In this document: positions 25,712-33,330 of the stretch, one piece after another | Numbering within the stretch: the stretch's first letter is position 1 | How the letters are laid out: every line of letters starts with the position of its first letter | Origin: Bacteriovoracaceae bacterium | GTDB taxonomy: Bacteria > Bdellovibrionota > Bacteriovoracia > Bacteriovoracales > Bacteriovoracaceae | Direction of reading: 5' to 3' | DNA length: 64,000 bases | Assembly: GCA_947450475.1 (NCBI GenBank) | Contig: CANFVK010000005.1 | Span: 95,763-159,762 of the forward strand | Made by a program: the position numbers and the translations under genes | Notes under the pieces: model-generated | The model's database searches: none | What the model was told of the DNA's origin: nothing | Seen by the model: only the letters and a program-made list of their open reading frames with translations

Positions 25712-28700
25712 ATGTTAAAAATACTCATTTTGTTATCACTTACTTTTAATTTGGCGTTTGCCAAGTCGCGCTTTACGGAAGAAGACCGTCGCAAATTCAT
25801 GGAGGAAGTAAAGCAAGGTATTGCCGCCCACAAGGTAGACAATAAAGGTAATGTTGATTTTCAAATTATAAAGCCTACCCTCTACGAAGAGTTGGACATT
25901 TATTATAAGCAACAAAAATTTACCCGCGAAGAAGTTGTTAAAATGAAGCAGGATTATGAGGGTTTTATTAAAAAATCGTCGAACCTTTTTAGTGGAGATG
26001 AAAAAGAAAAAGCCTTCATTTCTTTTATTGAGCAAGATTTAAATGAAATCAATCAATCCGAAGTTGCAAAAATAAAAGAAGGTGAAGTCTGCAATAATTG
26101 GGGCTGTGAAGAAGGTCTAAAGTGTGCTCCTGATCCAGTACAGGTCGATGGTAAATCGTGTTTAAAAATGGGCAAAGAGTGTCGTGATGATAAGGATTGC
26201 TGCTCCTCTTCCTGTACTATGGATACAAAAAAGCAAAAGAGATTTTGCGAAGAAGTCTATCGTTGCTTTAAGCCTCTTGATTTGGGTGAATCATGTATGA
26301 CTAACCCTGTTTGTGGAGAAGGCGATTGCTTGCCTTATAATTCTAAAACTTCTGGAATTGGTGAGTGCGAGGATAACAAACATTCTTGTAAAAAAAATAG
26401 CGATTGCTGCTCTAATTCGTGCGTTGAAAAAAAATGCTCAATCTCTTTCATCTGTAAAGATTGTGTAAAAAACGGCAGTAAACCTCAAAGAGGACAAACG
26501 TGTTGCGAGGGGCTTTATCAAGATCAATCTGGACGCTGCGTTCCTGATATGCCTCCAATCGTTCCACCACAGGTAAAAAATGACAAAGTCTCTGATAAAA
26601 TAGTTGCGACCCTGGCTTCTCTTTTGTTGAATTCGGCCCATGCAGATGAAGCCTATGACGAAGTTAATTCGGATCGTGACAAATACTCCAATTATCAAGC
26701 GACCTCATCAACACCAGATGCGGTAAAGGTTAAATCTGCTAATTTTACTTTGACCAGAAAATCAGACTTCAATACTTGTGACGTAAAATTTAGAGATGAC
26801 TTCCTTCAGTACTTGCAACAAGAAAAATTACTTGATTTAGAGCTGGCGATGATTTCTTTTAACTTTGTCTTTCTCGGGGATGGAGTTAACGATTATTGGA
26901 AACTGACATCGGATGAAAACTCTTCAATTTATGGCAGGCTTAAGGCGATTGCTCAGAGACAGCAACAAATGCGTGAAGCTGATAACGCTAAAATGCAAAC
27001 TATTAACCATAAACTTACTTGTATGTGTCTTGATGCTCAGGGTTTTCAAAACATAAAAGATGAAACCAAAAAGAAATTTTTCATGGAAGAATGTGAGGAA
27101 TATAAAACAGCTCTTGCTGGAGCTGTTTGTTACAAATCAGTTCCATGCGATACGGCGTCTGCTGGAACGCCAGTGTGTAACAATGGTCGGATGTTAACAA
27201 CGAATGGTTGTCTTTTGGGTGAGAGTGATTGCGTGTGTACTCAAAGTCAAATTCAAAGTATTCAAAAAGAAACAGCTTCTGGGATAAAAGGTAAACGCTT
27301 AATCGTAACTTTTACTTCAAAGTTAACTGAGTTTAATCAAGCTCTGACTGTCGATCATACGGAAACATACAATGCTATCAGTAAGGTTGGAGCTTATACC
27401 AATCAAGCCAATTGGAATGATACTAGTACTAAAACTTATTCATTATTTAATTTTAGCTTAAAAAATCCAAGCGGAAGTGTCGCTGCCATGGGAGCCATCC
27501 TTGGTGCACTATTAGCTGCAGGGGTTATTGCCGTTTTAGGTGGCTTTGCTACAACGTCGATGCTTTCAGCATGGGCCGCAGCTGGAATCATTGCAACTTC
27601 GGCCGCAACCGGGGGAACTGGATTGTGGTTGATAGCATCTTTAAAAGGAGCTTGGATTTCTAAGAGACCTGTGGTTTATGACAACATGATAAGCCAGTAT
27701 GGTTGTGGAAAAAAAGAAACATGCCAAGATTGGAGCCGCAAATTAACTCAGCCATATAACAATATTTGTAATGTTCACGCTTCGGCCAATGCTTGTGTGA
27801 AGAATTTTGTGGTGTGGAATGATGAAGCTACCGGTGAGCCTCGCTATGTAGTCGATCCTTGGGTTCCATGGGGAGTGCCTAAAGCTGAACTCCTAAGAGA
27901 TACTGGAGGAGTACGCAATTACGCTGAGAAATTAGAAGATGGATTCCAAGAAGCAAAAGATGCCATGATAGCTAAAAACCCAGGGGCCACCGGTGGCGGT
28001 GGTAAAGATGGTGGTGGAGCATTTGTATCTGAAGATTATATGCGCCAACTTTTTATCGACTCTGATGTGCTTGGGCATTATGCTCCCAAAATAGGAACAG
28101 ATGAAAATCAATACTTACTTACTTCAGATGTTGTAGAAAAAATTAAGACTCAAGCTGGTAAATTCCTAATTCTTTCTCAATTAGTTGAAAGACACGTAAT
28201 TGCATCGCCAACAAAAGATATGCAAACTTCTCGTTACTGCGTTAAGGATACGGATCAATCGATTTACTGTTCAGATGATAAGGACAATATTGATAAGTTT
28301 GCCGATTATGCGTATGAATTTCACTTTAAATGGCCAAAAACATCTCGCTTAAAAGAAATAAGTTATCCAACTGTTGCGCTCTCAACTTATTTAGATCTCA
28401 TGTCAAATGGTGTTGTGTTCTCAATGGCTTCTGGTGCTACTAAAGCCGCAAATACTTTTGGTCTGTTGAATGCTCAGTATCTCGACGATTATTTGAAAAC
28501 GTTGGACCTCTATAAGAGTAATACGGTTGACTGTGCCGCTGGACAAACCTGTACGGGGACATCGAAAACGATTAGTACCGATGCAGATAAAGTTAAAGCA
28601 GATCTTGATGCTCAGAAATTAACAAATGCCTTGGCCGGAAATGGCACTCTAGATGCCCAGTTATTAAACTTAAATCCGAACACATTAAGTGGAGCGGCTA

Positions 28701-29425
28701 AACAAGCGGGAATCAACGGAGGAAATTTATCATCAGGACAATCTGCTTTCTTGAATGCCATCGGCTCGCTAAGAAAAGCTCGAAAAGATCAGCTTAAAAA
28801 ATTAGATTTTTTCAATAAAGCCATGGCTTCTAAAGGAAAATCAAATGCTGATCGCACTGCCAAGATGGCGGCAGTCTCTAAAAAATTCTCTAATGCTTTC
28901 ATCAAGCCTTTAAGTGGTGGGCGTGGCGGTTCATCATCTGGATCAAGCCTCTTTGGTTCTGGTGGAGCAGATGGACTGAGCTCTGATGCCAACGGTAAAG
29001 ATAAAAATGGTAGCGGTGGTGATGGAAGTGGAAAAAATGGGGCGGGCAGTGGATATGGAGCTTACGGTATAGGGTCGCTAGGGAATGGGACCTATGGTAA
29101 CGGTGGAGACGGTTCAGGTGCAAATGCTTACGGAGCTGGCGGCGATGGAAGTGGAAACGGCTATGGTAAAAACGGCAAAGGTGGTACTGGCAGTGGAGAT
29201 ACAGGTGCCAACTTAAATGCTCTTGGTAAAGCTAATGGTATGAGTGATGAGGATGCACGCCGATTAGCAGAAGCAATTGAAGCTCGTGATCGTGCCAACC
29301 AAGAAAAATATAAATCACAAGCCGATAAAACTTTATTTGAACAAGTTACAAACGCTTATATTAGAAATTACGACAAAGTATTAATTAAGAAAAAGACTGA
29401 CAAGGACGTCATTGAGCAAAAGTAA
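25712..29425 (+). CDS. Giant (1237 aa) exported cysteine-rich protein with an internal TM hairpin and a Gly-rich tail
   Basis: Signal peptide MLKILILLSLTFNLAFA. Cys-rich block at aa 127-276 containing two C-x6-C-x5-CC-x3-C-xn-C modules. Two hydrophobic helices at aa ~589-645. GGDGSG-type repeats near the C-terminus. Confidence 0.7.
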   Translation: MLKILILLSLTFNLAFAKSRFTEEDRRKFMEEVKQGIAAHKVDNKGNVDFQIIKPTLYEELDIYYKQQKFTREEVVKMKQDYEGFIKKSSNLFSGDEKEKAFISFIEQDLNEINQSEVAKIKEGEVCNNWGCEEGLKCAPDPVQVDGKSCLKMGKECRDDKDCCSSSCTMDTKKQKRFCEEVYRCFKPLDLGESCMTNPVCGEGDCLPYNSKTSGIGECEDNKHSCKKNSDCCSNSCVEKKCSISFICKDCVKNGSKPQRGQTCCEGLYQDQSGRCVPDMPPIVPPQVKNDKVSDKIVATLASLLLNSAHADEAYDEVNSDRDKYSNYQATSSTPDAVKVKSANFTLTRKSDFNTCDVKFRDDFLQYLQQEKLLDLELAMISFNFVFLGDGVNDYWKLTSDENSSIYGRLKAIAQRQQQMREADNAKMQTINHKLTCMCLDAQGFQNIKDETKKKFFMEECEEYKTALAGAVCYKSVPCDTASAGTPVCNNGRMLTTNGCLLGESDCVCTQSQIQSIQKETASGIKGKRLIVTFTSKLTEFNQALTVDHTETYNAISKVGAYTNQANWNDTSTKTYSLFNFSLKNPSGSVAAMGAILGALLAAGVIAVLGGFATTSMLSAWAAAGIIATSAATGGTGLWLIASLKGAWISKRPVVYDNMISQYGCGKKETCQDWSRKLTQPYNNICNVHASANACVKNFVVWNDEATGEPRYVVDPWVPWGVPKAELLRDTGGVRNYAEKLEDGFQEAKDAMIAKNPGATGGGGKDGGGAFVSEDYMRQLFIDSDVLGHYAPKIGTDENQYLLTSDVVEKIKTQAGKFLILSQLVERHVIASPTKDMQTSRYCVKDTDQSIYCSDDKDNIDKFADYAYEFHFKWPKTSRLKEISYPTVALSTYLDLMSNGVVFSMASGATKAANTFGLLNAQYLDDYLKTLDLYKSNTVDCAAGQTCTGTSKTISTDADKVKADLDAQKLTNALAGNGTLDAQLLNLNPNTLSGAAKQAGINGGNLSSGQSAFLNAIGSLRKARKDQLKKLDFFNKAMASKGKSNADRTAKMAAVSKKFSNAFIKPLSGGRGGSSSGSSLFGSGGADGLSSDANGKDKNGSGGDGSGKNGAGSGYGAYGIGSLGNGTYGNGGDGSGANAYGAGGDGSGNGYGKNGKGGTGSGDTGANLNALGKANGMSDEDARRLAEAIEARDRANQEKYKSQADKTLFEQVTNAYIRNYDKVLIKKKTDKDVIEQK

Positions 29426-30536
29426 TTTTGATGAAAAGAATAAAACGAGACTAGTTAACTTAGATTTCTTACGCGGATTATTTGTCATCTTAGCACTCGA
29501 TCAACATTTCACGTACTACATTAACATGTGGTACGTGTCTTATTTTAGAGATGTCATGGCGCTCACTTCAACATACAAAATTAATTTTCCTATGATCGGT
29601 CACCAAATTTCAACAGATCGTTTTAATCTTATGCTTGGAATTATATTCACCCCTTGGGTGAGTCAAGTGTATCTTACAATGGCTTCATTTAATTTGGCCC
29701 GCAAGCCCAGCTACCTTTTTAGAGATGAATTAGCTTCGAAGCTCAAAATGTTTGGACTTATTTTTATTTTTTTTACTTTAGAAAATTTTATAGTCGCACC
29801 CAACAGTGGTGAAGCCATTTCGTTTTATCCCATTATGTTGTGGATGGTGGTAATGAGCATTATTTCCATTTTTTACAGCTTGATGGGGATTAGAGGGGTC
29901 TTGTTACTTACACTGATATCATTTTTACGCTGGGTTGTGCCCATTGATATGCTGTCAAATCTTTTTCAAAGTATAATCCGTTATAATATTCATCCTGGTT
30001 TTGAATATGATGCTCGCATTGAATATTTTTTCTCTTCGGGCTGTTTGGGATTCATAATGGGTCATGCCCATTATCACATGCCCAATTACAAAAAAGTGAA
30101 AGACTTCTATTTCATGCTATTGGGACTTGTTTTTGTTTTATTTTATTGGGCCTATGGGATTCCTTATATAATTGATCCATCCAACGCTTTTGCGCATGAG
30201 CACGATATGGCCCAAAGCTTTAGTGGGACTCTTTTTATTTTAGGAGTTCAGGCATTTGTAATCTCAACTTTTTTATGGCTTGAAAAAAAAGAAATACGAT
30301 TTAATGTTCCGATATTTACATGGGTGGGAGCAAATTCATTGCTTGTTTTTGCCCTTCACAGAGTTTTCTTTGTCAAGTTTTTAGCCCCCGTTAGCTTGAT
30401 GGTGGGAAGCATGCTGGGGCGACCGATTGGAGCTTCAACTTATGAGCTCTACAGTTATGTAGGTCTCACCATAGCATTTTGCTATTTTGTAAAAGCAACT
30501 CGTCTCAATGAAATACTTGTGACAAGAAAAGGATAA
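29412..30536 (+). CDS. Polytopic membrane protein, acyltransferase-3/DUF1624-like (heparan N-acetyltransferase-like)
   Basis: N-terminal RLVNLDFLRGLFVILALDQHF resembles the R-x-x-x-D-x-x-RG...H start of these families. About 9-10 TM helices. The TTG start overlaps the upstream stop by 14 nt, with AAGGA upstream. Confidence 0.5.
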   Translation: MSKSNFDEKNKTRLVNLDFLRGLFVILALDQHFTYYINMWYVSYFRDVMALTSTYKINFPMIGHQISTDRFNLMLGIIFTPWVSQVYLTMASFNLARKPSYLFRDELASKLKMFGLIFIFFTLENFIVAPNSGEAISFYPIMLWMVVMSIISIFYSLMGIRGVLLLTLISFLRWVVPIDMLSNLFQSIIRYNIHPGFEYDARIEYFFSSGCLGFIMGHAHYHMPNYKKVKDFYFMLLGLVFVLFYWAYGIPYIIDPSNAFAHEHDMAQSFSGTLFILGVQAFVISTFLWLEKKEIRFNVPIFTWVGANSLLVFALHRVFFVKFLAPVSLMVGSMLGRPIGASTYELYSYVGLTIAFCYFVKATRLNEILVTRKG

Positions 30537-30544
30537 GGAAGACT

Positions 30545-31615
30545 ATGGACACTAGGTCCCAGCATTTAATTTTTGATGCCATTCTTGAAAAAGAGATAAC
30601 ACAAGCTGATGTCGATGGTATTAAAAATGTTATAGAGAAAAATCTAACTGTCGTTGAAAAAGTGGAGTATAAATTTACACCACAAGGTGAAACAATTGTC
30701 TTTATCCTTTCTGAATCCCACTTTAGCCTTCATACCTATCCCGAAAATAAATATATCTCTATGGACATATATGTTTGCAACATGGAAACAAATCTTGAAA
30801 AAATTATCGATGAGATAAAGGGGATTGTTTCGTTTGAGAAAATTGAATCGCGCATTTTGCCCAGAGGTAGAATTGCTCAGGGAACGATTGATCGAAGTGT
30901 TCAAGTCGTTTATTTGCTAACCATCGTTGTCGCCTGTTGTAGTATCTTGTACGAGTTTTTATTGGCGCAATCTATTTCCACCACGATGGGCAATACCGCA
31001 TTGAGATACAATTTAACCATTGGACTTTTTATAGCTTCAATGGGATTTGGGGCCATCTTGTACAAAAAACTAATTGGGCCAGATCATTTTAAAGAATTTA
31101 TCAAAGTAGAGCTCTTACTTTCCCTTATCGGTGGTATTGCTCCAGTTCTAGTTTTGATTATTGATTATTTTTTTAATTCATTTGCCAAAATATCCAATGT
31201 TTCATTTTTTTCATTTTGGATACAGGCTCCACTTTTTTCGATAAATCACTTGCTAATTGTCGCGATTGGCTTTCTTTCTGGCTTGGAATTACCTCTATTG
31301 ATGGATATGAGCAAGAAGTTCACAACGACGAAAGGGCATTTTGTATTAGCATATGATTATTTAGGCACATTGCTTGGAGCGATTTTATTTCCTATTATTA
31401 TTCTGCCTAATTTGCACTTGTTTACAATCGGCTATGTCGTCTCTGCAATCAATATTTTAGTAGCACTCTTTGTGATGATTAAAATGAAAATAAATCATCG
31501 CGGCTATCGTTTGGCAATATGGCTGATGTTGATTACTTGGATTTTTGTAATTATTCAATCAACTTCTCTCAATGAATTTATTGTTGAAAGATTCTATTTT
31601 GGCGGGAAGTTTTAA
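30545..31615 (+). CDS. S-adenosylmethionine decarboxylase (SpeH-type pyruvoyl proenzyme) fused to a polytopic membrane domain
   Basis: FILSESHFSLHTYPE matches the class-1 AdoMetDC self-cleavage motif (E57|S58, Ser codon at nt 30716-30718). Residues ~115-356 are multi-TM and resemble the N-terminal domain of the next gene. Confidence 0.7.
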   Translation: MDTRSQHLIFDAILEKEITQADVDGIKNVIEKNLTVVEKVEYKFTPQGETIVFILSESHFSLHTYPENKYISMDIYVCNMETNLEKIIDEIKGIVSFEKIESRILPRGRIAQGTIDRSVQVVYLLTIVVACCSILYEFLLAQSISTTMGNTALRYNLTIGLFIASMGFGAILYKKLIGPDHFKEFIKVELLLSLIGGIAPVLVLIIDYFFNSFAKISNVSFFSFWIQAPLFSINHLLIVAIGFLSGLELPLLMDMSKKFTTTKGHFVLAYDYLGTLLGAILFPIIILPNLHLFTIGYVVSAINILVALFVMIKMKINHRGYRLAIWLMLITWIFVIIQSTSLNEFIVERFYFGGKF

Positions 31616-33330
31616 TGGACAAACGATCATTAATTAAAGCAGAACTTTTTTTAATAACTAGTCTTTTAGCTTTTTGTAGCATTGTCTACGAACTTCTTCT
31701 GTCGAATACCTTAGCGATAGTTACCCAGAATTATATCTGGTGGCAATCTTTCACAATTGGGATTTATATAGGTGGATTGGGACTTGGAGCTTATTTTTCA
31801 GATAGGTTCAAAGATACATATAAAAACATTATCAGCGTGGAACTATTGCTGTCGTTTTTTGGTGCTATTTGTGTGCTCTATGTCTATCTTTTTCATGGTA
31901 TATATAAATATATAGACAGTTTGTTTTTCTACACCGGCGATTTCTACTCAACCTTTTATTTGCAAAATGTTTTTTTATTGAAAATAGTTTTTTTTATTGC
32001 CATTCAGGTACTCACGCTTTCTATTGGAACACTTTCTGGGTTTGAAATTCCTCTTATGATGAAAATGGCAGTTGAAAGACTTGGAGAGTCTGAAGAGGGA
32101 GAGCATTATATATTAGGGGTCAATTATCTAGGAACACTGATTGGAACAATTTGTTTTGCTTACTTTTTATTGCCTAAATTAGATGTAGTAAAAACATCTG
32201 TTTTCGTCGCACTCTTGAATCTTTTAGTATGCCTCTATTTCCTGGTAAGATATGTAAAGAAAAATCGAGCTCTATATTCTAGCTTTACAGTGGCCATTGC
32301 TTTACTTATTTCAGTTGTTGGATTTAATGAAAGCTCCATCACTCAGGGCTATTTAAAGTTCTTTTATTATCTTCCCAAAATCCTGGCGAAAGATAATCTT
32401 GATTTCACTGACCTTGTACGAAGAATTGAAGGATTTAAGCCAATCGAAAGAACTAAATCACTTTACCAGTATGTTGATATTTTTAATTATCCAATGACTG
32501 AAGATGGAATTGTTAAGGATTCAACCATATTAACTCTTGATACTAATTTTCAGTTCAACACTGCTACTGAGTTTTATTATCATCAGGCCTTTGCTCATAT
32601 TTCGATAGCTTTAAATAAGAAAATTCCCAAAAGAATACTTATGCTTGGTGGGGGAGATGGTCTTTTATTAAGAGAATTATTAAAATATCCTGAAATCGAA
32701 TTCATAAAGCAAATTGAACTAGATCAAAAGATGATTGATCTTGCTAATTCGCGTTTTGCAGAGCTCAACAAGCACTCAATGCAGGATCCAAGAGTTCATA
32801 CTGAAATTAACGATGGATTCTATTACGCTAGAACAACTAATGAAAAATTCGACGCTGTTTTTATTGATTTTCCTTACCCAAATTCTTACGACCTCTCTCG
32901 TTTGTATAGCGTTGAATTCTATTCATACGTTAGAAAATTACTAAATCCCAACGGTTTTGTCGTACTGGATTCACCTTTTTATAATAAGGTAGATTACAAC
33001 AAAGATCGCTATCAAGGCCGTGTTGTTTTCACTCAGGTCTTTAACGATGTCCAGGTTAAAAGCAATAGTGTTGTCGCAAGCACGTTTTATTATGCTGGTT
33101 TCAAATCATTTTTTCCTTATCGGGTTTCAGATGAATCTTTTATATTCCTGAAGGAGGAGCCAGGCATGATTGATTTCAATTTTATGGATGGTGCCGATCT
33201 CTCTAAATTGCAACCGCAAACGATTAGAGAAATGAAAGAAATAAAAAACCAACAATTTCCCTATAGAATTGCCTTCAAGTTCGTCAACTCAATCTTTAAG
33301 CCTACTCTCATAAGAAAGAACGAATTTTAA
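31615..33330 (+). CDS. Membrane-anchored spermidine-synthase-like aminopropyltransferase with an atypical acceptor motif
   Basis: About 7 N-terminal TM helices. GGGDG at nt 32647-32661, IELD, DPRV. DFPYP sits in place of the canonical D-S-(S/T)-D-P (nt 32866-32880). The ATG shares 1 nt with the upstream TAA. Confidence 0.8.
   Translation: MDKRSLIKAELFLITSLLAFCSIVYELLLSNTLAIVTQNYIWWQSFTIGIYIGGLGLGAYFSDRFKDTYKNIISVELLLSFFGAICVLYVYLFHGIYKYIDSLFFYTGDFYSTFYLQNVFLLKIVFFIAIQVLTLSIGTLSGFEIPLMMKMAVERLGESEEGEHYILGVNYLGTLIGTICFAYFLLPKLDVVKTSVFVALLNLLVCLYFLVRYVKKNRALYSSFTVAIALLISVVGFNESSITQGYLKFFYYLPKILAKDNLDFTDLVRRIEGFKPIERTKSLYQYVDIFNYPMTEDGIVKDSTILTLDTNFQFNTATEFYYHQAFAHISIALNKKIPKRILMLGGGDGLLLRELLKYPEIEFIKQIELDQKMIDLANSRFAELNKHSMQDPRVHTEINDGFYYARTTNEKFDAVFIDFPYPNSYDLSRLYSVEFYSYVRKLLNPNGFVVLDSPFYNKVDYNKDRYQGRVVFTQVFNDVQVKSNSVVASTFYYAGFKSFFPYRVSDESFIFLKEEPGMIDFNFMDGADLSKLQPQTIREMKEIKNQQFPYRIAFKFVNSIFKPTLIRKNEF

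Follow-up and report, generated by a model that had tools for sequence, protein, structure and literature searches.

Within a 64,000-nucleotide stretch of the genome of a Bacteriovoracaceae bacterium (GenBank assembly GCA_947450475.1, contig CANFVK010000005.1, positions 95,763 to 159,762 of the forward strand; hereafter the window, with positions counted from its first letter), the open reading frame (ORF) P0001 encodes a 1237-aa protein in which residues 127-276 form a strikingly cysteine-rich domain. We propose that this domain is a disulfide-bonded, extracytoplasmic, double knottin-like unit acting as a binding head partnered with a large envelope protein, and we put the probability of this reading at roughly 0.6. 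The domain would contain 12 disulfides, spread over two tandem homologous 10-Cys units and a 4-Cys half-module. P0001 belongs to an orphan family of Bacteriovoracaceae/Halobacteriovoraceae, and neither Pfam nor NCBIfam places a family on any part of it. The features of the ORF that carry the argument are the following.

25712 to 29425, + strand: ORF P0001 of the orphan family, 1237 aa (ORF call).
25712 to 25762, + strand: N-terminal Sec-type signal peptide, MLKILILLSLTFNLAFA/K (sequence reading; the consensus ends AFA/K, with A17 invariant).
25778 to 26053, + strand: four-helix N-terminal region, residues ~23-114 (DSSP on an AlphaFold 2 [AF2] model; alignment with the split small proteins described below).
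26090 to 26266, + strand: 10-Cys unit 1, residues 127-185, a three-Cys hairpin, a six-Cys module, and a closing Cys (hhalign).
26159 to 26248, + strand: module 1, C-x6-C-x5-CC-x3-C-x10-C, residues 150-179, like an inhibitor cystine knot (ICK), CLKMGKECRDDKDCCSSSCTMDTKKQKRFC (sequence).
26294 to 26455, + strand: 10-Cys unit 2, residues 195-248, all ten Cys invariant or nearly so (hhalign).
26366 to 26437, + strand: module 2, C-x6-C-x5-CC-x3-C-x4-C, residues 219-242, ICK-like, CEDNKHSCKKNSDCCSNSCVEKKC (sequence).
26462 to 26539, + strand: 4-Cys tail, C-x12-CC-x10-C, residues 251-276 (C251, C264, C265, and C276, all four invariant).
26540 to 26575, + strand: conserved proline-rich linker, VPDxPPxVxPQV followed by R or K (alignments).

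The domain duplicates a 10-Cys repeat unit of ~60 aa that is centred on the six-Cys module. The original prediction, made from the letters alone, had described two toxin-like modules, and both lie exactly where it put them and share the (K/R)xxxDCCSxSC core that it reported, which in module 2 reads KKNSDCCSNSC. Its figure of 26 Cys for residues 127-276 should be 24, and it understated the repeat, which extends beyond the modules to the full 10-Cys units and is followed by the 4-Cys tail. Residues 122-185 and 190-248 align over 57 columns with an hhalign probability of 97.6% (E 3.7e-12); each unit begins with a three-Cys hairpin (C127/C132/C138 in unit 1, C195/C201/C206 in unit 2) and has a closing Cys five residues past the six-Cys module (C185 and C248, respectively). 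The tail may be a two-disulfide, hairpin-type half module, as judged from a weak similarity to module 2 (hhalign probability 17%). Cysteine makes up 16% of residues 127-276, compared with 1.26% across genome ORFs of at least 80 aa, and no other 150-aa segment of the genome has a higher Cys density. The exact framework, written as a regular expression, matches only twice in ~1.04 million six-frame ORF residues of the genome, at modules 1 and 2, and the pattern is far beyond chance.

Cysteine loss among relatives is informative about how these residues are paired. The number of Cys in the domain is even in all 122 sequences of the domain alignment (20, 22, 24, or 26), and paired losses aside, the domain Cys are retained in these 122 full-length copies from relatives. 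Across the 54 full-length homologues, 18 of these 24 Cys never vary, and changes at the remaining six (C150, C157, C163, C164, C219, and C233) are confined to losses that are paired or compensated. Co-loss counts in the 122-sequence alignment, in the order both present/first only/second only/neither, are as follows.

C150 and C164: 68/3/0/51, the three exceptions bearing a new Cys at position 155.
C219 and C233: 110/0/0/12, with at least four different residue replacements.
C226 and C237: 119/0/0/3.
C127 and C138: 111/0/0/11.
Positions 120 and 133, an extra pair gained jointly: 21/1/0/100.

The variety of replacements at C219 and C233 indicates several independent loss events, and one homologue, P0118, lacks both C157 and C168. 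In module numbering the co-lost pairs are CysI-CysIV and CysII-CysV, which is the connectivity of knottins. Co-loss thereby appears to support a I-IV bond in both modules and a II-V bond in module 2, with P0118 alone suggesting the latter bond in module 1. Each knot would then pair CysI with CysIV, II with V, and III with VI, the hairpins would be held by C127-C138 in unit 1 and C195-C206 in unit 2, and the units would be closed by C132-C185 and C201-C248, two pairings obtained from elimination only.

That disulfides form at all was thought plausible in the original prediction, and the even counts, the paired losses, and a set of VKOR/DsbA-type genes agree with it. The genome encodes a VKOR-thioredoxin fusion, which joins VKOR to a DsbA-like thioredoxin domain in one 382-aa frame (genome contig C1, 120820-121881, - strand, outside the window), together with two further DsbA-like genes. 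We found no DsbB in the genome, and because the VKOR-DsbA frame is present, the predator apparently uses a VKOR-type disulfide pathway. Export and oxidation of the domain are plausible: the N-terminal Sec signal peptide would export it, and a periplasmic VKOR/DsbA-type system would oxidise its Cys. The alternative that the Cys bind metal instead of forming disulfides, as in a zinc ribbon, a metallothionein-like protein, or an Fe-S cluster, draws its sole support from the high Cys density, and we regard it as very improbable given that the domain has a signal peptide for export, that its Cys are gained and lost strictly pairwise and always sum to an even number, that it has no His/Cys clusters of four at metal-site spacing, that periplasmic oxidative-folding genes are present, and that AF2 returns a confident small-beta fold.

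The predicted fold agrees with knottin connectivity. An AF2 model of residues 118-290, built from a 39-sequence alignment, has a mean predicted local distance difference test (pLDDT) score of 83 and, by DSSP, places CysV and CysVI on paired strands in both modules (residues 168-171/176-179 in module 1 and 237-238/241-242 in module 2). The same secondary structure recurs in a separate 1058-residue AF2 model (pLDDT 77, predicted template modeling [TM] score 0.73), so that the CysV/CysVI beta-hairpin characteristic of the knottin fold is found in two models. Loop lengths of 6/5/0/3/10 and 6/5/0/3/4 fall within the ICK pattern C-x2-7-C-x3-11-C-x0-7-C-x1-17-C-x1-19-C, and homologues preserve this spacing, the conservation of which had been proposed as a check on the original prediction. 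AlphaFold modelling had been a further proposed check. A Foldseek comparison of the model with the Protein Data Bank (PDB) gave no significant E-value (the best is 0.27), but knottins and related disulfide-hairpin peptides head the list and fill about half of its 49 rows. ProTx-I superimposes with a root mean square deviation (rmsd) of 1.6 Å over 30 columns (probability 0.97) and ProTx-II has a target-normalised TM score of 0.71, the rmsd of the ProTx-I/II superpositions being 1.6-1.7 Å; ceratotoxin, psalmotoxin, Aps III, maurocalcin, and the double-knot toxin DkTx are among the other rows. Profile searches likewise return weak matches to knottin families and to no others in Pfam or the PDB, all of them sub-threshold (Omega-toxin, UPF0506, Toxin_23, Conotoxin_I2, and the scorpion calcine family in Pfam; module 2 against maurocalcin, E 0.11, in the PDB). 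The framework VI/VII knottin assignment of the original prediction is thus backed by spacing, co-loss, the modelled hairpins, and the composition of the Foldseek list, but by no Pfam score at cut-off and no Foldseek E-value below 0.1.

The likeness to the Dickkopf/colipase fold that had been suggested alongside it did not hold up. P0001 has no Dickkopf_N match, the structures of Dkk1 (3s8v_X) and colipase (1lpa_A) superimpose with rmsd of 10.3 Å and 11.2 Å, respectively, and the Dkk C-subdomain model is matched by 1 of 39 homologues, with an E-value of 0.11. A complement of ten Cys per unit, including a C-x6-C-x5-CC stretch, is a trait in common with the Dickkopf N-terminal domain/colipase fold.

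The models and the co-loss pattern together make it likely that the modules would form true cystine knots, although several observations weigh against this and against our reading of the domain more generally. The III-VI bond, like the unit-closing bonds, rests solely on elimination, and the AF2 models may be biased towards knottin folds met in training. The curated knottin models (Omega-toxin, Toxin_27, Conotoxin_I2, Toxin_23, and UPF0506) all score P0001 below the gathering cut-off, the best being UPF0506 at 18.5 bits (cut-off 23.2) and the next 14.7 bits (cut-off 22), and knottin-family E-values in 39 homologues are never better than 0.003, short of any family cut-off. The UPF0506 model, PF11703, gives noise-level matches in relatives and in control genomes alike. 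The knot loops are the least conserved parts of the domain, with top-residue frequencies of 0.44-0.51. Finally, the divergent homologues P0071 and P0075 lack C150, C157, C163, and C164 yet keep C168 and C179, and they would be compatible with ICK pairing only if C168 and C179 re-pair.

These divergent sequences, in which C157 and C163 have been lost jointly, also invite an alternative in which the spacing is that of a knottin but there is no knot. The modules would then be disulfide-stapled hairpins of other connectivity, such as nearest-neighbour pairing or a two-disulfide beta-hairpin with staples, and their likeness to toxins would be convergent and superficial. Such an arrangement would sit comfortably with the absence of the C150-C164 bond from about 40% of homologues and with the resemblance of the 4-Cys tail to half a module; however, the co-lost pairs are I-IV in both modules and II-V in module 2 (and, through P0118, in module 1), not nearest neighbours, the best superpositions are on whole ICK toxins, and the CysV/CysVI hairpin appears in both modules in two independent models. 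We therefore consider unknotted hairpins unlikely and continue with the double knottin-like unit as the preferred reading.

The domain is confined to a narrow group of bacteria, where it is well conserved. P0001 has >80 full-length homologues of 35-60% identity, all annotated 'hypothetical'; those named by organism are almost all Bacteriovorax, and the named family records are from Bacteriovorax, Bacteriovoracaceae, and Halobacteriovoraceae. With the 150-aa domain as query, HMMER returned 91 hits among 1.84 billion representative proteins, all of them the P0001 family or its fragments, and a length-window profile search for stand-alone relatives also found only fragments of the family. Of 25 genomes of the genus, 23 carry the gene as a single copy; in a phylum-wide sample of 301 genomes it occurs, again as one copy, in 26, every one of them from the same bacterial family. 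Mean column identity is 65% in the Cys-rich domain compared with 42% in the whole protein, making the domain its best conserved part. Non-Cys residues of the linker and tail are strongly conserved, whereas loop 1 is variable and a conserved inhibitor-type reactive loop is absent. The variable knot loops, together with loss of the module 1 I-IV bond in about 40% of homologues, suggest that the conserved surface lies near the hairpins, the 'TSGIGEC' linker, module 2, and the CCEGLY tail. Distant family members hold one, two, or three modules, and one fragment is a pure module array.

The relationship of the domain to the rest of P0001 became clearer from three other lineages, which were located through short matches of the 1.84-billion-protein domain scan. 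In all three the Cys-rich domain, behind a signal peptide, is encoded by a small gene of its own, upstream of a separate large gene.

L013 (6001-10017), GC content 0.49: small gene 208 aa, large gene 1128 aa.
L016 (6001-9177), GC content 0.38: small gene 127 aa, large gene 914 aa.
L014/L015 (L014 1341-5454), GC content 0.73-0.75: small gene 202 aa, large gene 1012 aa.

The corresponding parts of P0001 are a segment just past the domain and the remainder of the protein.

26573 to 26644, + strand: internal signal-peptide-like segment, residues 288-311 (alignment of homologues).
26762 to 29422, + strand: part homologous to the separate large gene, residues ~351-1237 (BLASTP, collinear).

The gap between the small and large genes is 3-48 nt in L013 and L016 and about 470 nt in L014, and in L014/L015 the intergenic region holds an extra small Cys/Pro-rich ORF with a signal peptide. 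The large genes are collinear with P0001 from residue ~351 onward in all three lineages (BLASTP E 7e-9, 1e-21, and 2e-19), and the C-terminal motif LFE.V..AY.RNY..VL is common to P0001 and the L013 large gene. Because the small and large genes are adjacent in three other lineages, P0001 is a Rosetta-stone fusion of a small Cys-rich protein and a large one, and the domain would be the dedicated partner of a ~900-aa helical envelope protein, encoded next door elsewhere and fused in Bacteriovoracaceae. Stand-alone small proteins end at or just past the PDxPP part of the proline-rich linker, and those of other lineages lack the four-helix N-terminal region. The original prediction had the domain following a signal peptide, and such a peptide is present, but ~109 residues of predicted helices separate it from the Cys-rich region.

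The internal segment has the organization of a second signal peptide: a basic n-region, the h-region IVATLASLLL, and then NSAHA/D, in which A311 never varies. All 54 homologues conserve the segment, with a hydrophobic stretch of 10-13 residues followed by small-x-Ala, and a hypervariable insert of 0 to ~250 aa lies directly past it. The large genes of L013 and L014 begin with a clear signal peptide of their own, and that of L016 does so only if translation starts at an upstream in-frame TTG. By this comparison residues 288-311 are the signal peptide of the large partner, which has survived the fusion as a conserved n-h-c/AxA segment kept under selection. We also considered an internal translation start at the nearly invariant V288 and rejected it; 8 of 9 loci have GTA or GTT at this codon, and no Shine-Dalgarno sequence precedes it.

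A signal-peptide-like segment placed directly past the domain, with small secreted stand-alone versions elsewhere, raises the question of whether the domain is a released effector, cut off at the internal AxA or secreted alone, acting on prey as a knottin-type toxin, a channel or porin blocker, or a protease inhibitor. The organism is a predator, and the tandem modules recall bivalent double-knot toxins. We nevertheless think this improbable. The domain is always fused to or encoded with the same large partner, its gene is single copy with no gene-family expansion, and its linker and tail show strong residue conservation, which is not the habit of arms-race toxins; nor does its variable loop 1 offer the conserved reactive loop of an inhibitor. 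Signal peptidase I cleavage past an already exported domain is topologically problematic as well, an awkwardness that also counts against our own reading of the internal segment. The conserved linkers and tail, the single copy, the obligatory partner, and the variable knot loops all argue against a venom-like free toxin, and a single-copy gene with a ~1000-aa fusion or neighbour and a domain identity of 65% does not have the character of a venom-type toxin gene family. The original prediction had suggested a protease inhibitor, an ion-channel or receptor ligand, or a prey-surface adhesin. Partnership with a large protein, and conserved linker and tail residues alongside variable knot loops, favour a partner-bound binding head, which may serve to position the large protein, or to regulate it, at the predator envelope or the predator-prey interface. 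That the head is rigid, protease-resistant, and possibly bivalent, working with the large partner at one of these sites, is a tentative proposal to which we would give slightly less than even odds.

Proteins with similar modules surfaced in a pattern scan of species genomes. Metagenome-assembled genomes of Polyangia/Myxococcales, and one archaeal one, encode proteins with 10-16 tandem modules and 65-200 Cys (L035 1801-4803; L036 718-4113; L037 1495-4125; L038 2617-4146; L039 2440-3570), in which the module spacing is 6/5/0/3/4 and 6/5/0/3/9-10 and the core is G..C....(D/E)CCS(G/N).C..G.C. One of these proteins scores above the Pfam Conotoxin_I2 cut-off (32.8 bits vs 27). At least 141 protein clusters resemble the array, many with precomputed knottin-family hits and all hypothetical, and the named ones are from Polyangiaceae or Minicystis. 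The module 2 profile matches the array-module profile with a probability of 97.4%, a score inflated by the selection of array modules on their spacing pattern, and reversed or column-permuted controls reach ≤4%. These comparisons show that the same module is present in other prokaryotes. As 326 of 328 aligned array modules have all six Cys, co-loss is uninformative on connectivity there. It is conceivable, but doubtful, that knottin-type knots did not originate with eukaryotes, that a prokaryotic (D/E)CCS module family is related by descent to animal ICK toxins, and that the Bacteriovorax double knot, as a subunit of an envelope machine, is a bivalent ligand of some conserved prey-envelope target in the attack, released at the internal signal-peptidase site.

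Comparison with known systems brings out both the likeness and the differences. With ICK toxins such as ProTx-I/II, psalmotoxin, maurocalcin and other calcines, and the framework VI/VII omega-conotoxins, the modules share the C-C-CC-C-C framework with loops of 6/5/0/3/4-10, the putative I-IV and II-V bonds, the CysV/CysVI beta-hairpin, and the best Foldseek superpositions. In contrast to the 30-40-aa free peptides of those families, which are borne on propeptides and form expanded hypervariable families, this module is bacterial, belongs to a 10-Cys unit that is part of a ~1000-aa protein or adjoins one, and is single copy under strong purifying selection, and no knottin model recognizes it at cut-off. 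The Polyangia/Myxococcales and archaeal arrays have the identical module spacing and (D/E)CCS core, but consist of bare modules and have no three-Cys hairpin, closing Cys, or large partner. A tandem of two homologous disulfide-rich modules with a short linker between them is also the architecture of DkTx, itself among the Foldseek rows, and of secreted cysteine-rich repeat proteins (SCREPs), in which tandem modules have been linked to bivalent, high-avidity binding (PMC6262176). Unlike DkTx and SCREPs, the P0001 domain has ten-Cys units and a 4-Cys tail and is fused to or partnered with a large envelope protein.

Another comparison is with UPF0506, whose 59-position profile spans the whole 10-Cys unit in the distant homologue P0110 (positions 4-58, 22.0 bits), and one member of the P0001 family is named 'UPF0506 family protein' by NCBI. 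We do not assign the domain to it; scores are below the 23.2-bit cut-off wherever tested, the cut-off is passed in 0 of 25 genomes, and the scan matches are at noise level. A literature search found UPF0506 mentioned in flatworm studies; it is an uncharacterised, Cys-rich family of nematodes too. The same search returned no paper on bacterial knottins or on the P0001 family. The knottin fold type is already known, and it is the conserved bacterial version that is undescribed in the searched literature, Pfam, and NCBIfam; its features are the 10-Cys unit, a double-knot domain fused to or partnered with an orphan envelope protein, and the related long arrays of Myxococcota.

Knottins are textbook eukaryotic mini-proteins, found in venoms, plant defence, and fungal effectors, and are a favoured drug scaffold. 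A conserved, disulfide-covarying bacterial knottin-like module would extend the fold to prokaryotes, would feed the debate as to whether ICK folds have a single or multiple origins, and would point to naturally bacterial, periplasmically folded knottin scaffolds. The split lineages identify this orphan envelope protein, family-wide and single copy in Bacteriovoracaceae, as a two-component system with separable parts, and the complete internal signal peptide in the fusion would be a clean case for following the fate of such segments after gene fusion.

Outside the domain, the stretch of P0001 from residue ~351 to 1237 combines helical with beta-rich structure; its Cys include four plus four that are invariant, its tail is rich in Gly/Ser, and its C-terminal motif is conserved. 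Two further features concern the membrane.

27467 to 27646, + strand: Gly/Ala-rich hydrophobic hairpin, residues 586-645 (Kyte-Doolittle peaks; AF2 pLDDT <50).
29412 to 30536, + strand: gene for a 374-aa polytopic membrane protein, overlapping the P0001 ORF downstream (position conserved with the large protein).

Residues 586-645 probably form two membrane helices. Conserved paired Cys flank the hairpin on either side, which fits an extracytoplasmic location of both halves of the protein, and no hydrophobic stretch aligns at the hairpin position in the large partners of the split lineages. The description of P0001 as a bacterial exoprotein is thus reasonable but incomplete, as the protein also has this mid-protein hairpin and the internal signal-peptide-like segment. 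The whole-protein AF2 model has no PDB fold match; the helical rows returned, ClyA-, AhlC- or BipD-like, are weak (E >1, rmsd ~20 Å) and were not used. Pfam and NCBIfam recognize nothing on the 374-aa membrane protein.

Several minor observations concern the large protein and its surroundings. A six-Cys insert, C473-C509 (27128-27238), is present in 12-15 of 54 homologues, its Cys appearing jointly, and C843/C853 (6 of 54) and C941/C947 are further Cys pairs restricted to certain lineages. The C-terminal motif AIEAR..AN..KY....TLFE.VTNAYIRNYDKVL (29240-29422, residues ~1177-1237) is found in related genomes at the end of other proteins too, of ~640-920 aa, and occurs a second time in L012 (15213-15362); it has the look of a C-terminal tag or anchor common to these proteins. 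In the window, positions 29412-33330 continue the gene order large protein, 374-aa membrane protein, membrane-fused AdoMetDC, and membrane aminopropyltransferase. L007 and L008 preserve this order within the genus, and so does L010 from another genus, with a large protein of only 29% identity; in L012 the order is replaced, and L009 and L011 lack it. Elsewhere in the genome, outside the window, a second Cys-rich protein is encoded in a 615-aa stop-to-stop frame (contig C1, 640546-642393, + strand), with a lipobox-like LSSC near its N terminus and 19-20 Cys in its C-terminal ~150 residues, including C-x5-C-x4-CC-x4-C-x8-C and C-x5-C-x3-CC-x6-C.

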